DNA from: an uncultured bacterium
GTDB lineage: Bacteria > Patescibacteriota > Minisyncoccia > Minisyncoccales > RBG-13-42-11
NCBI GenBank assembly: GCA_963790795.1
Contig: CAWBPO010000001.1
Coordinates: 38,675-102,674 of the forward strand
Direction: 5' to 3'
Length of the DNA stretch: 64,000 bases
Below the pieces are notes generated by a model, which ran no database searches, had not been told where the DNA came from, and saw only the letters and a program-made list of their open reading frames with translations. Shown here piece by piece: positions 44,300 through 50,460 of the stretch (its first letter is position 1; every line of letters starts with the position of its first letter). The position numbers were made by a program, and so were the translations under genes.

Positions 44300-45061
44300 A
44301 TGAAGAAAATAAAAAAATTTAAATTGATTTCATTAATATTTTTTTGGTTGTTTATCTCAATCGAAATTGTTTTAGCTCAAGGTTTACCATCGATGGCCAG
44401 AAATCTTGAAATAGATGATCCAGAAGCAAAAACGGGGGATATTATTTCTCGAACTAAGGATGGCCTATTTCGCTCAAACATTCCTTACGATCAAAACATT
44501 ATTGGAGTTATAGGAGAAACTCCAATTTTAGTTTTTGGCAAACCAACCACTACTACTTTACCAATAGTTTTTTCAGGAGAAACATTAGCAAAAGCAAGTA
44601 ACATAAATGGAGAAATAAAAAGAGGTGATTTCATTACCTCCTCAGATAAATCGGGAGTAGGACAAAAAGCAACTCAATCCGGATTTGTAATTGGGAAAAC
44701 CCTGGAAGATTTTAACCAAGAGGAGGGATTGATAACCCTGGTTGTTAATATTCAATATGTAAATATTCCAGAAGGGAAATTCACTTTTGGCGGAGTGGTT
44801 CAGGAAATTATTTCTGGATTGAAAATGCCAGAAAATATTCCAGAAGTTCTTCGTTATTTTTTTGCCATTCTCTTGGGAGGAGGAAGTTTTTTTATAGGTT
44901 TCTTCTCGTTTGCAAAATCCCTGAGAGACGGAGTGACGGGAATCAGTAGAAATCCTCTGGCCAAAAAAAGCATTCAATCAGCGATGATATTGAACTTAAT
45001 TGGAATTTTAATCTTAACTATGGCTGGACTCGCCTTAGCTTTATTTGTTATACTTTACTAA
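44300..45061 (+). CDS. secreted N-terminal domain fused to a C-terminal two-helix hairpin resembling F-type ATP synthase subunit c (loop motif SRNP); conserved ion-binding carboxylate absent
   Basis: Signal peptide [28 protein letters not shown]; C-terminal [67 protein letters not shown]; first gene of an atp operon that lacks subunit a. Confidence 0.4.
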
Positions 45062-45710
45062 TATGGATAATCAAACTTTCTTTATTATTTCAATTAGTTT
45101 AGGTGTTTTTGCAATAATAGTAATAATTTTATTTGGCCTCAATATTTATTATTTGGCGAAAAAGCCTAAAGAAGAAAAGGGTGTCCTGTCTTTAAAATTT
45201 TCTGAAAAGTTCCTGCCAGAATTAGAAAAACTAATTAGCCAAGAGATAAAAAAAGCTATTTCAGAAATCAATCAAAAAGTTACCAATGAAGCAATGGAAT
45301 ATTATAAAAAACAAATGGCTGTTTTTTCTCAGGAGGCAGAAAACAAGATGGCTGATTGGGACCAAATAACTAAAAAAGAAATTTTAAAATTTAGCAATAT
45401 CTATTCTCAGGCCGAAGATTTAATATTACAAATAATAAAGAATAAGGTAGACGAATTAGGCAAGGGTCTGAATGAAAAAATCGATCGGATTTACCAATCA
45501 GTAACAGAAACTATAAACCAGCAAACTGCCCAAACCGAAAAGAATATCGAAGATTATAAAAAAGAAAAATTAAAAGAGGTAGACCAAAAAATTTATCAAA
45601 TAATAGGAGAAATAGCCAAAAAAACAATTGGAAAATCAATTGATATCTCCGACCATGAGCAATTAGTAACGGAGGTCTTGGAAAAGGCAAAGAAAGAGAA
45701 AATTTTCTAA
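45045..45710 (+). CDS. atpF: F-type ATP synthase subunit b-like (N-terminal TM helix plus long coiled coil)
   Basis: 221 aa, single N-terminal TM, K/E-rich helical remainder, operon position before delta. Confidence 0.55.
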
Positions 45711-45711
45711 A

Positions 45712-45979
45712 CCGAGCACATAATGTACTATGTTTATCTCATAAGAAATTTAAAAACTGGCAATACCTACATAGGCTCAACTAATGATTTAAAAAGGAGA
45801 CTCCAAGAACATAGAAATAAAAAGCCAGATTTAATTTATTATGAGGCCTACAAAGATGAAATAGATACAAGAGAAAGAGAAAAGAAATTAAAAAAACGCG
45901 ACCAAACAGTCCGAAGATTAAAAGAGAGATTAAAGTATAGCCTTAGAAAACCGAGATATTAAAACTTATGTACTCGGTA
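45712..45979. mobile_element. GIY-YIG gene bounded by 12-bp inverted repeats CCGAGCACATAA (45712-45723) and TTATGTACTCGG (45968-45979): putative miniature GIY-YIG insertion element in the atp operon
   Basis: arms match the 40505-40533 palindrome; ORF start ATG lies within/just after the left arm (cataATGtac). Confidence 0.45.
45723..45962 (+). CDS. small GIY-YIG nuclease-superfamily protein (YhbQ/UPF0213-like)
   Basis: MYYVYLIRNLKTGNTYIGSTNDLKRRLQEH (GIY-...-YIG, R and E catalytic residues); gene sits inside the loop of a 12-bp inverted repeat. Confidence 0.75.
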   Translation: MYYVYLIRNLKTGNTYIGSTNDLKRRLQEHRNKKPDLIYYEAYKDEIDTREREKKLKKRDQTVRRLKERLKYSLRKPRY

Positions 45980-45986
45980 AAAATCA

Positions 45987-46481
45987 ATGAAGGAAATTTT
46001 TGAAAACTTGGTTAAAAAAATAATCACTAAAGATGATTTTTTACTTTTTATTGAGGAAATAAACCTACTTGAGCAGATTGTTTTTAAAAACATAGAGGTA
46101 CCTCTTTGGAAAAGAGTAAAAGGAAAGGTAGGGGAAAAATTTAGAAATGAACTTCAAAAATTAGAAGAAGAGGGCATAATCTCGGCATCTCCTAATCAAC
46201 AATTTTCTTTTTTTGATGAACTCAAAAATTATCTCCAAAAAATACCTCAGGTTAAATTAGAAATCGCCTTCGAACCTTCTGAAGATTTTCTTTTGAGAAT
46301 TAAGAAATGGTTTAAAGAAGAAAATCATCAAGAGGTAATTTTGGACATAACCATAAATCCAAAAATTGTTGGTGGAGCAATAATAGAATATCAAGGAAAT
46401 TGGCGCGATTTTTCATTAGCAAAAGAAATAGATAAATTAACCCCCCACCAAAATTTGGTGGGGGGCAAGTATTATGAGTGA
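45987..46481 (+). CDS. atpH: F-type ATP synthase subunit delta (OSCP)
   Basis: C-terminal ILDITINPKIVGGAIIEYQGNWRDFSLAKEIDKL typical of delta C-terminus. Confidence 0.65.
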   Translation: MKEIFENLVKKIITKDDFLLFIEEINLLEQIVFKNIEVPLWKRVKGKVGEKFRNELQKLEEEGIISASPNQQFSFFDELKNYLQKIPQVKLEIAFEPSEDFLLRIKKWFKEENHQEVILDITINPKIVGGAIIEYQGNWRDFSLAKEIDKLTPHQNLVGGKYYE

Positions 46482-47949: not shown

Positions 47950-47951
47950 AT

Positions 47952-48824
47952 ATGCCCATTTTAAAAGAAATTAAAGAAAATTTAAAAGCCATTTCCAATA
48001 TTGAAACAATTACCATGGCCTATCAAGAGATTGCTAATTTAAGAATGAATGAAATCCGCCAAATAGTGCTAAGTAACCGAGAATTTATCGAGGAATTGTC
48101 TCGGGTTTATACTCTGGCAAAAAAAGCTTATCTTTCCTTGCTTAAAACGGGAGGAAAAGCAATGAAAAAAGAAGAATCTTTCATAAAACGCAACCGAGGG
48201 AAAGTTGCTGTTTTTCTTTCTTGCAATAAACCATCATTTTATGGAACTTTAATTTTAGACATCTGGCAGGAAATTCAAGGGGATTTGAAAGAAAAGGAGG
48301 TGGATTTAGTGACAGTAGGAAGAATGGGCAAATATTTGGCTGAAATTAGTGAATGGAGGCTGAAAATGTTTTATTTTGAATTAAATGATGAAAAACCGGA
48401 AAGAGAAAGAGTTAAAGAAATCATGGAGTTTCTCAAAAATTATGAAGAAATTATAATTTTTCACGGAAGATTTCACACTGTTTTGTCTCAAAAAGTGGTA
48501 CAAACTAATATCTCAGGAGGAATTACCTTAAAAGAAAAATTGGGTGAAGTTAAAAGTTATTTATTTGAGCCATCACCAGAAGCTGTTTTAGAATTTTTTG
48601 AAACTGAATTGATGTCCGCTTTTTTCAATCAGGCTCTTTTAGAACATCGGCTATCAAGATATGCAACAAGAATAGTAGCAATGTACCAAGCTACCAAAAA
48701 TGCTAAAGAAATAAGAGAAAAACTTAAAATAGAACAAAAAAAATTAGAACGTCAATTGTTAAATAAAAAACAAATTGAGGTATTTTCTGGTTTTCAATTA
48801 TGGAGCAAAGAAAACAAAATATAA
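47952..48824 (+). CDS. atpG: F-type ATP synthase subunit gamma
   Basis: [34 protein letters not shown] (cf. gamma N-terminal ..EIR.KI.SV.NT.KIT.AM..VAA.KM). Confidence 0.75.
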
Positions 48825-50194
48825 ATATGGGCGGAACGGGCTATATCCTTTCAATTCAGGGAGAAGTGGTTGAAGTTGAATTTTATAAAAACCCACCTTT
48901 TATTGGTGAAATATTAGTATTAGAAGAAAATCCTAAAGCTTTTCTGGAAGTTCACAGCGCATATGCTAAGAATACTTTTTTGTGCCTTTCTCTTACTGAG
49001 TCGGATAAATTATATCGAAGTGCTAAGATTAAAAGAACAGGAAAAAGTTTAGAAGCACCTGTGGGAAAAGAACTTTTAGGTAGAGTAATTGATATCTTTG
49101 GCAATCCTCGGGATGGATTGCCTCCATTTGAAATTGAAGAAAGGAGATTAATCTATCAATCTCCTCCTTCTTATCAAGAGATTATCTTTGGAAAAGAACT
49201 AATAGAAACAGGAATAAAAGTAATTGATTTCTTCACCCCCCTGAGAAAAGGCGAAGAATTGGGACTTTTTGGAGGAGCAGGGGTGGGGAAAACTGTTATT
49301 CTTTGCGAGTTAATGCATAATGTTGCTTTTTTTAAAAAAGAAGTTTCGGTTTTTGCCGGCCTGGGAGAACGAATCAGAGAAGGACATGAACTTTATGAAA
49401 CATTAAAGAAAAGTGGTATTTTGCCCTCGGTGGCTTTAGTTTTTGGACAAATGAATGAATCGGCAGTAATAAGATTTAAAGTGGGGTTTGTTGCCGCCAC
49501 TATTGCTGAGTATTTTCGCGATTTCCATCATCGGGATGTTCTTTTCTTTATTGATAATGTTTATCGATTCTTGCAGGCAGGCAATGAACTTTCAACAATG
49601 CTTTCGGTAATCCCGTCCGAAGACGGCTATCAACCCACTCTTAATAGTGAGATTGGGAAACTCGAAGAAAGATTGGTTTCAACTAAAAATGGTTCAATAA
49701 CCAGCATTCAGGCAATTTATGTCCCGGCAGATGACATTACTGACTCTGGGGTTCAAGCAGTCCTCCCCTATTTTGATTCAGTAGTCATTTTGTCCCGCGA
49801 TATCTATCAAGAAGGAAGATATCCAGCAGTAGATATTTTAGCTTCTTCTTCCTCAGTAATAGACCCAATTATTTTAGGCCAAAAACACTACGAAGTTTTA
49901 CTGGAAGCAAAAAAAGTCTTGGAAAGATACAAAAACCTCCGGCAAATAGTCTCGATTATTGGCGAAGCCGAACTCTCAGTAGAAAACAGAGTTATTTATT
50001 ATCGAGCAAAAAAACTTCTAAATTTTATGACCCAAAATCTTTTTACAATAGCTGAACAAACTGGAGTACCAGGACAATATATAAAAAGAGAAGAAACTAT
50101 TGAAGGAGTGAAAGCAATTTTAGAAGGTAAATTAGACCAAGTTCCAGAAGAAGCATTTTTGTATATCGGTGGTTTAAGTGATTTAAAATACTAA
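48800..50194 (+). CDS. atpD: F-type ATP synthase subunit beta
   Basis: Walker [16 protein letters not shown]-region loop; probable true start at MGGTGYI (~48827). Confidence 0.9.
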
Positions 50195-50196
50195 TT

Positions 50197-50460
50197 ATGG
50201 AAAAAAAATCCCTTCTTGAGGTAAAAGTATTTTGCTCACCGGTTATTGAAAAAGAACCCTTCAGAGGAACAGCCGAAGCAGTTTCTTCTCAAAATAAATT
50301 GGGTAAATTTGATATACTCCCCAGACACACCAATTTTATTACTCTTATTTTTGGAACCTTAACCATTTATACTCCTGATAAAAAAAATTTCGCCTACCAA
50401 TTTGAAAGAGGAGTATTAGAGGTAAGTGAAAATAAAGTAAATGTTTTTTTGGGATTATGA
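50197..50460 (+). CDS. atpC: F-type ATP synthase subunit epsilon (N-terminal beta-sandwich only)
   Basis: 87 aa; LEVKVFCSPVIEKEPFRGTAEAVSSQNKLGKFDILPRHTNFIT pattern. Confidence 0.65.
   Translation: MEKKSLLEVKVFCSPVIEKEPFRGTAEAVSSQNKLGKFDILPRHTNFITLIFGTLTIYTPDKKNFAYQFERGVLEVSENKVNVFLGL

Follow-up and report, generated by a model that had tools for sequence, protein, structure and literature searches.

A predicted F-type-derived ATPase variant of Patescibacteria with a carboxylate-free, c-like hairpin fused to an extracytoplasmic domain

The DNA studied here is a stretch of 64,000 nucleotides (referred to as the window in the following) from an uncultured bacterium of the Patescibacteriota (assembly GCA_963790795.1, contig CAWBPO010000001.1, positions 38,675 to 102,674), and our analysis focuses on an atypical F-type ATPase gene cluster that it carries on the forward strand at positions 44300-50460. 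The first gene of this cluster, g1 (44300..45061), encodes a fused c-like subunit of 253 amino acids. It is followed by genes for a b-like peripheral-stalk subunit (45063..45710; the open reading frame [ORF] starts with TTG at 45045, but the probable start is the ATG at 45063), a stand-alone GIY-YIG domain protein of 79 amino acids (45723..45962; PF01541, E 3e-11, 43.8 bits vs. a cut-off of 22.6), delta (OSCP; 45987..46481; PF00213, 36 bits, cut-off 22.3), alpha (46474..47949; PF00006, E 5e-65; TIGR00962, 415 bits and thus under the cut-off of 484), gamma (47952..48824; PF00231, 96.6 bits, above the Pfam cut-off), beta (48827..50194; TIGR01039, 503 bits, above the cut-off of 463; the ORF extends from 48800, with the ATG at 48827 as the probable start), and epsilon (50197..50460; 87 amino acids; PF02823, 38 bits, above the Pfam cut-off). 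This is the gene order that an earlier note on this DNA had given, and all of its ORFs were recovered in place. As judged from gene content and sequence conservation, the cluster appears to represent a widespread F-type-derived ATPase variant of Patescibacteria for which we found no earlier description from the Candidate Phyla Radiation (CPR) in the searchable open-access literature.

The F1 portion of the complex looks enzymatically competent, a view suggested by the intact motifs of its two large subunits. Both the P-loop (GDAKTGKT) and the arginine finger motif (SVSRVG) are present in the translation of alpha, the catalytic motifs of beta can likewise be read without defect from its translation, and PF00006 matched both proteins. 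The canonical motifs previously ascribed to the F1 subunits are hence found in the translations, and family matches were obtained as well. With the exception of beta, all F1 subunits score under the NCBIfam equivalog cut-offs, and epsilon consists of the N-terminal beta sandwich only, its C-terminal inhibitory helices being missing. The relatives of beta in the cluster of sequences at ≥90% identity carry the names Candidatus Nealsonbacteria or Parcubacteria. From g1 through a histidine kinase gene that lies downstream of epsilon, consecutive genes are separated by no more than 27 nt, which suggests a single transcription unit. The best sigma-70-like promoter site (43345-43372; 11/12 matching positions with an extended -10 region) is found just 5' of an IS1595-like gene that precedes g1. 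A scan with Rfam of the region 42700-52800 returned nothing meaningful, and no tRNA gene was detected in the window.

Our AlphaFold2 model of g1, calculated with 39 homologues (mean predicted local distance difference test score, pLDDT, 80.9), starts with an N-terminal signal helix, a Sec-type signal peptide (nucleotides 44300-44377), which is followed by a beta domain of about 125 residues (residues ~30-155, pLDDT >90; nucleotides ~44387-44764), a linker of about 25 residues whose disordered part comprises residues 160-179, and a helical hairpin (residues 180-252, pLDDT ~90; nucleotides 44837-45058). The loop that connects the two helices carries a net positive charge. Together with the signal peptide, this predicts the topology of a c subunit (N-out, loop-in, C-out), and the beta domain would consequently be extracytoplasmic. 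The model and the signal peptide thus agree with the claim of the earlier note that g1 ends in a two-helix hairpin with a c-type loop and is fused to an N-terminal extracytoplasmic domain.

We describe positions in the hairpin by counting from the loop proline, so that P+n denotes the n-th residue past it. The cytoplasmic RNPLA loop is essentially invariant among the 266 members of the g1 family that we inspected. In canonical enzymes, the R-Q/N-P loop of subunit c forms the surface that is gripped by gamma and epsilon. The small-residue packing motifs are retained in the g1 hairpin as well, and Gly occupies P+24 in 257 of the 266 proteins. What the hairpin lacks is the ion-binding carboxylate: its position, P+18, is held by Leu, Ile, Val, Ala, Ser or Phe and in none of the 266 family members by Asp or Glu. 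Helix 2 is altogether devoid of Asp and Glu in g1 of the window, in the 39 aligned homologues and in 265 of the 266 family members; in the single remaining protein, a Glu is located at the boundary of the membrane, away from the carboxylate position. The earlier assertion that helix 2 has no carboxylate therefore applies not only to the window but to the family at large. An Asn is found at P+13 in 243 of the 266 proteins and is replaced by Glu at locus L038 and by His at locus L039. The g1 homologue of L038 (7778-9481), in which the Glu stands in place of the conserved helix-2 Asn, is a 567-amino-acid ORF that carries an additional N-terminal helix-turn-helix (HTH)-like segment and a transmembrane helix ahead of the beta domain and the hairpin; this upstream extension could be an artefact of ORF calling.

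Whether the hairpin matches models of AtpE had been named as a check. Pfam yielded no match for g1, with PF00137 giving nothing at E≤1, and the sole NCBIfam match was to a model of the F0F1 c subunit (NF005608; residues 210-251, E 0.017), whose 15.7 bits fall far short of the cut-off of 128. Other comparisons support kinship with subunit c. When a profile of the hairpin built from 24 homologues was run against 177,635 PDB sequences, eight matches were obtained, seven of which are c subunits of F-type ATP synthases, with Spirulina c15 as the best one (E 0.0015). In this alignment, RNP of g1 pairs with RQP, the Thr and Gly of g1 fall on those located behind the carboxylate in canonical c, and the canonical carboxylate Glu itself falls on a hydrophobic column of the g1 family. 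The same register was found with hhalign when the hairpin was compared with seven canonical c sequences (90% probability, E 1.7e-6, 40 columns). In the reverse search, in which a small hidden Markov model (HMM) of canonical c was run against all ORFs in the six reading frames of the window and of 50 related loci, orthologues of g1 ranked at the top. Foldseek superimposed the modeled hairpin onto c-ring subunits (2wie_A, 6fkf_G, 4cbj_A and others) with target TM-scores of 0.73-0.86 and root mean square deviations of 1.3-3.0 Å; 2wie_A gave a TM-score of 0.73 and 6fkf_G a deviation of 1.7 Å. Judging from these sequence and fold comparisons, we consider that the hairpin of g1 is a genuine but strongly divergent relative of subunit c that has lost its ion site. 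As g1 stays under the curated thresholds of the c family, an annotation as AtpE would be inappropriate.

In the b-like protein, a single N-terminal transmembrane helix precedes a coiled coil whose length varies, and a segment of about 60 residues at the C-terminus is conserved. Its gene is located between g1 and delta in most of the related loci that carry F1 genes; locus L040 has neither b nor delta. This architecture and the position of the gene agree with a b-type stalk. The protein matched NF011044 (subunit B) weakly (E 0.04), and its profile found b subunits of bacteria and the b' subunit of chloroplasts (E 3e-4) in the PDB amid dominant noise from apolipoproteins and other coiled coils, which makes this search weakly informative.

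No a subunit was found in the 64-kb window or within up to 10 kb on each side of about 40 related loci, neither by a motif scan nor by phmmer with the E. coli a subunit, a screen of transmembrane-helix counts, or precomputed Pfam matches. The same holds in this sequence space for a canonical, atpE-like c ORF besides g1, for which the c-HMM and six-frame ORFs were used, and no Arg-bearing a-like helix pair was detected in the window or the related loci. A canonical atpB/atpE pair elsewhere, as envisaged in the earlier note, is thus not present in the window or in these flanks; a partner may be encoded elsewhere in the genome.

The arrangement is by no means a peculiarity of the window. At least 318 close homologues of g1 exist, and in a library clustered at 50% identity, 392 representatives were found at E≤1e-30, nearly all of them 245-290 amino acids long. 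Among the 30 genome loci that contain enough downstream DNA, 27 have F1 genes following g1, and the order g1-b-delta-alpha-gamma-beta-epsilon is kept in almost all of these 27 loci, down to 30-38% identity. The cluster occurs in Parcubacteria, WWE3 and other Patescibacteria, so that the conservation of the fusion in this group, for which a check had been proposed, is strongly confirmed. Many metagenome-assembled genomes behind loci L007-L044 are labelled as Saccharibacteria, Omnitrophota, Humimicrobiaceae or Gammaproteobacteria. The gene content of these loci is of the Parcubacteria/Nealsonbacteria type, and the labels are probably generic or reflect mis-binning. Three divergent loci have g1 homologues without adjacent F1 genes. 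Two of these homologues, L039 9941-10732 (Roizmanbacteria) and L044 9929-10810, are flanked by giant fibre-like proteins, and the third, L032 9986-11389, has only a b-like gene adjoining. It may be that g1 acts without an adjacent F1 in these cases, or that the F1 genes are located elsewhere.

According to Foldseek, the fold of the g1 ectodomain is that of phage capsid cement or decoration proteins (Pam3, Borrelia BB1, TW1, Sf11) and also that of the phi29 head-fibre base, the C-terminal autochaperone of phi29 gp12 and tail-spike autochaperone domains; the matching structures include 8hdt_G, 8pkh, 5wk1_K and 3gqh. Two homologues lie at about the gathering score of 25 for PF11962 (Peptidase_G2), with 25.6 bits for P0049 and 24.3 bits for P0060. 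This domain family is huge and resides mostly in non-ATPase proteins (15,306 matches at E≤1e-3). Giant fibre-like proteins likewise bear domains of the g1 type close to their C-termini, one such domain being located right behind a Peptidase_S74 chaperone domain. Phage cement proteins and the phi29 gp12 autochaperone (Peptidase_G2/S74 modules) share this fold, but in g1 a c-type hairpin holds the domain at the cell membrane, in place of a fibre or capsid.

Immediately downstream of epsilon, the genes for a response regulator of 130 amino acids (50488..50880, forward strand), which possesses the CheY-like receiver as its sole domain (PF00072), and for a histidine kinase (50900..52477, forward strand) with HisKA and HATPase_c domains and an N-terminal membrane domain of about nine transmembrane helices confirm the sensor kinase/response regulator pair reported before at this place, with the qualification that the regulator is a receiver only. 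Of the 27 genome loci with F1 genes, 18 have this pair next to the cluster. At L009, L010, L014 and L019, it is positioned inside the F1 block between alpha and gamma, which suggests tight co-expression with the motor.

Two paralogous surface proteins of 627 and 739 amino acids are encoded on the reverse strand at 38553..40436 and 40542..42761, respectively, and are thus transcribed divergently from the operon. The 739-amino-acid protein has an N-terminal, cytoplasmic HTH-like segment (weakly MerR-like) that is conserved, one transmembrane helix, and a long extracellular part, the C-terminal domain of which is likewise conserved. Orthologues of the surface proteins are located divergently and directly 5' of the operon in most related loci, with E values down to 1e-212. 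A kinship of the g1 ectodomain to these two proteins was considered and rejected (hhalign probability 0.2%). In L040, the position of the surface proteins is held by a 1338-amino-acid protein of the same N-terminal architecture, an HTH segment followed by a transmembrane helix. On the other side of the operon, a protein encoded at 52520-54850 (reverse strand), followed by an FtsW/RodA gene at 54919-55998, is a conserved neighbor in most related loci. It is one of two similarly built proteins of about 777 amino acids with 12-13 transmembrane helices, the second being encoded at 14178-16514; a TPR tail was confirmed for the protein at 52520-54850. Over the very large ORFs at 22-38 kb (22000-38000), the G+C content amounts to 0.41-0.475 (mostly 0.44-0.475), compared with 0.30-0.36 over the ATPase region (42000-56000). 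The higher G+C content may simply mirror the Gly/Thr/Ala-rich nature of giant surface proteins.

Upstream of g1, in the place where atpB might have been expected, the earlier note had placed an IS1595-like gene. This gene (43416..44141, forward strand) indeed adjoins g1, and there is no atpB upstream, yet it is a conserved resident of this locus and not a replacement. Its product is a Zn-ribbon/HTH protein with a degenerate DDE domain (PF12762, E 1e-4; NF033547, E 2e-9; both under cut-off) that keeps the Zn ribbon (CPKC...CKNC) and the HTH-like segment, and in which the position of the second catalytic Asp varies (ENW/EEW/ASW/ENL). Orthologues are present directly 5' of g1 and on the same strand in 14 loci (six distinct orthologues, E 1e-66 to 1e-111; the loci named are L001-L007, L010, L014, L016, L017 and L025). 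The gene has one copy in the window and has diverged about as fast as its neighbors. With its synteny in 14 loci and its degenerate DDE domain, we reject the idea of a fresh insertion that replaced atpB; nor is it an intact mobile IS1595 transposase, given the scores under the cut-offs, the variable catalytic Asp, the single copy and the fixed syntenic position. Shared synteny, similar divergence and the lost catalytic Asp point instead to a long-resident, probably domesticated gene, which may act as a regulator and may open the operon.

A 14-nt AT-rich inverted repeat (43163/44282) that brackets this gene looks like low-complexity sequence arisen by chance. Further repeats are found on both of its sides: three direct and one inverted copy of AAAGTTTGAAAAnTGAAC occur 5' of it at 43117-43362, one of them overlapping the best promoter-like site, and a 41-bp tandem repeat of two copies (93% identical) lies between it and g1 at 44157-44238. 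Both sets of repeats may serve as operator sites.

The GIY-YIG gene is indeed situated between b and delta, as had been noted before, but it is no part of the operon in relatives: it occurs once in the window and in none of the 50 related loci, for which reason we reject it as a subunit of the machine. Since the relatives carry other selfish ORFs at the junctions of their operons, it is best viewed as a lineage-specific selfish insertion. The small selfish genes in question code for PDDEXK_3 proteins (L009 6874-7275; L027 12772-13167; L012 1773-2173, the latter apparently split) and for a 23S rRNA intervening-sequence protein (23S_rRNA_IVP; L020 1443-1799), and the operon junctions seem to be hot spots for insertions.

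Collectively, these data lend themselves to a reading that we consider somewhat probable: the cluster would encode an ATP-hydrolyzing derivative of the F-type enzymes that is uncoupled from ions and acts at the cell surface. Lacking both the carboxylate and the a subunit, rotation should not be able to couple to the flow of H+ or Na+, and the complex would in all likelihood be neither a conventional synthase nor an ion pump. The view put forward before, that this is not a conventional proton-coupled synthase and may run only as an ATPase, thereby gains support from the carboxylate-free hairpin and from the fact that no a subunit was found. The invariance of the RNP loop suggests that gamma and epsilon still grip g1 as the foot of a rotor. 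F1 would hydrolyze ATP and turn, or torsionally strain, a ring of g1 hairpins that is blind to ions and crowned on its outer face by the extracellular domains, so that the energy of ATP might pass across the membrane to the surface. There, it might be directed at the large fibre-like surface proteins whose genes are conserved beside the operon. The histidine kinase and the stand-alone receiver, co-transcribed with the motor, probably control its activity, and the receiver could act on the motor directly in a CheY-like manner; that epsilon is without its inhibitory C-terminal helices makes such an external control plausible. In a bolder and rather doubtful version, the complex would be a new class of rotary surface motor, in which F1, held by a b/delta stator, spins the ion-blind c-like ring and the phage-type beta crown passes torque to the envelope, for instance to assemble, tension or move the neighboring giant adhesins during host attachment, the kinase-phosphorylated CheY-like receiver serving as the switch.

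Several points weigh against an ion-uncoupled surface ATPase. PF00137 fails on the hairpin, each individual score for homology to c is modest, and the alignment to c spans only 40-45 residues (the loop and helix 2), with no significant alignment of helix 1. The formation of a ring by g1 and its docking to gamma and epsilon are proposed from conservation, and, with no a subunit, the b stalk has no evident anchor as a stator. The search for atpB and atpE covered the window and the flanks of the loci, and a canonical pair may lie elsewhere. There are, moreover, the three divergent loci with g1 homologues that lack adjacent F1 genes, and the two-component system is missing from the most divergent loci. 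Finally, the link to the surface proteins is one of synteny and may merely reflect the conserved gene order of small genomes.

Among the other explanations, it is unlikely that the locus belongs to a conventional, ion-coupled F1Fo enzyme whose a and c subunits are encoded elsewhere in the genome, with g1 being a c-derived accessory protein such as an assembly factor, a regulator or a minor component of the ring. Split atp operons exist in other bacteria, and g1 homologues are found apart from F1 in L039 and L044. Our search covered the window and the flanks of the related loci, and canonical a, b and c subunits have been reported in some Patescibacteria (PMC8672522). Against this reading, g1 occupies the very position of atpE, directly ahead of b, in 27 of 30 loci. 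It is with g1 that b and delta are grouped and not with a hypothetical a/c pair, of which no trace was found in the window or in the flanks of the related loci, and the invariance of the RNP loop speaks for a contact of g1 itself with gamma and epsilon. We regard it as improbable that the hairpin is a mere membrane anchor whose likeness to c is convergent, and that F1 is soluble or tethered by b and either non-rotary or freely spinning. Two-helix hairpins are structurally simple, PF00137 finds no match, the ectodomain family is mostly at home in proteins other than ATPases, and g1 occurs without F1 in three loci. Against convergence stand the specificity of the PDB profile search, with seven of its eight matches being c subunits aligned in the expected register, the probability returned by hhalign, and the conserved position in the operon. 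A simple anchor would also have no need for the invariant RNPLA motif and for a Thr and a Gly at c-like spacing.

Still less credit can be given to ion coupling through an unconventional site, the Asn at P+13, together with an unrecognized stator channel formed, for instance, by the kinase domain with its nine transmembrane helices or by another membrane protein. The polar Asn lies inside helix 2 in 243 of the 266 proteins, is Glu or His in divergent members, and a histidine kinase with multiple transmembrane helices is embedded in the operon. This kinase, however, is absent from divergent loci, no a-like helix pair with the requisite Arg was detected in the window or the related loci, and no rotary ATPase is known to work without a carboxylate. 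It is hardly conceivable, finally, that the cluster is a decaying relic of an ATP synthase without present function. CPR genomes are reduced, selfish genes have been inserted into the operon, and the F1 subunits except beta score under the equivalog cut-offs; all ORFs and catalytic motifs are nonetheless intact. Positions that are invariant in hundreds of homologues, together with a gene order that is kept down to 30% identity, moreover testify to long-term purifying selection.

If the preferred reading of an ion-uncoupled ATPase acting at the cell surface is correct, a c-ring can be kept and repurposed after the loss of ion coupling. This would bear on the physiology deduced for many uncultured organisms, as metabolic reconstructions of CPR/Patescibacteria commonly take an "F-type ATPase" as a sign of ATP synthesis driven by the proton motive force (PMF) or of PMF maintenance (e.g., PMC13293708, PMC8672522, PMC11974145). 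Should a large share of such hits prove to be the variant without carboxylate and a subunit, these inferences would be wrong for many lineages. The complex also presents a concrete target for electron cryotomography and cryo-electron microscopy in Patescibacteria enrichment cultures.

Compared with canonical F1Fo (atpB-E-F-H-A-G-D-C), the gene order is identical from the position of c onward, and the intact F1 motifs, delta, a putative b-type stalk with a single transmembrane helix, the R-N/Q-P loop and the topology of the hairpin are held in common. The differences lie in the missing a gene of the operon, in a c-like protein that is devoid of the Glu/Asp, carries a signal peptide and an ectodomain of about 125 residues and measures 253 amino acids vs. 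about 80 for canonical c, in the short epsilon, in the embedded two-component system, and in F1 subunits that, beta excepted, stay under the equivalog cut-offs. The N-ATPases (atpDCQRBEFAG) are likewise encoded by a divergent, second F-type operon, but they retain subunit a as well as a c subunit whose carboxylate binds Na+, and possess AtpQ and AtpR in addition. We reject membership in this group; the alt_F1F0 models score far under the canonical ones and under the cut-offs, and a, canonical c, AtpQ, AtpR and the extra small membrane genes are absent from the cluster. The FliI-FliJ-FliH system of type III secretion and flagellar export is F1-related as well, with a gamma-like stalk, b/delta-like tethers and a task other than ion-coupled synthesis. 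FliI-type ATPases are homohexamers docked to an export gate, whereas the motor encoded in the window would combine gamma, delta and epsilon with an alpha3beta3 heterohexamer, and far lower scores were obtained with the SctN/FliI models.

The closest functional analogues are the F1-like X0 ATPases of mycoplasmas, Type 2 (gliding G1) and Type 3 (MIB-MIP-associated) (PMC3369863, PMC12994834, PMC11864180), which provide a precedent for surface functions driven by ATPases of F1 descent in which a, b and c are absent (PMC3369863, PMC12994834). In both systems, alpha, beta, gamma and epsilon derived from F1 are joined to a membrane sector that is non-canonical and has no recognizable a subunit or ion site, both belong to genome-reduced, host-dependent organisms, both are linked to surface proteins, and in both the energy of ATP would be carried across the membrane. 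The mycoplasma proteins MMCAP2_0577 and MMOB1650, as described, resemble g1 in architecture. The seven-gene clusters of mycoplasmas, in contrast, lack b and delta, contain a 12-transmembrane-helix protein and a small cytoplasmic protein, and follow another gene order, and their membrane proteins have no similarity to subunit c. Membership in Type 2 or Type 3 is rejected, since a b-like gene and delta are present in the cluster of the window and a protein with 12 transmembrane helices is not. The models for MSC_0618/0619 and MMOB1660/1670 score under the canonical atpD/atpA models and under their own cut-offs, so that beta and alpha do not belong to those families. The absence of b, delta and a c-like protein from the mycoplasma clusters and their different alpha/beta families set the system of the window apart as a separate variant that is closer to F1Fo. 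Besides the mycoplasmas, this would be a second, independent case of an F1 motor recruited to the cell surface in genome-reduced symbionts, in which the retained b/delta stator makes the evolutionary path traceable. If the complex does operate as a rotary surface motor, it would represent an intermediate between F1Fo and the mycoplasma F1-like X0 ATPases, and the first outward-facing mechanical c-ring.

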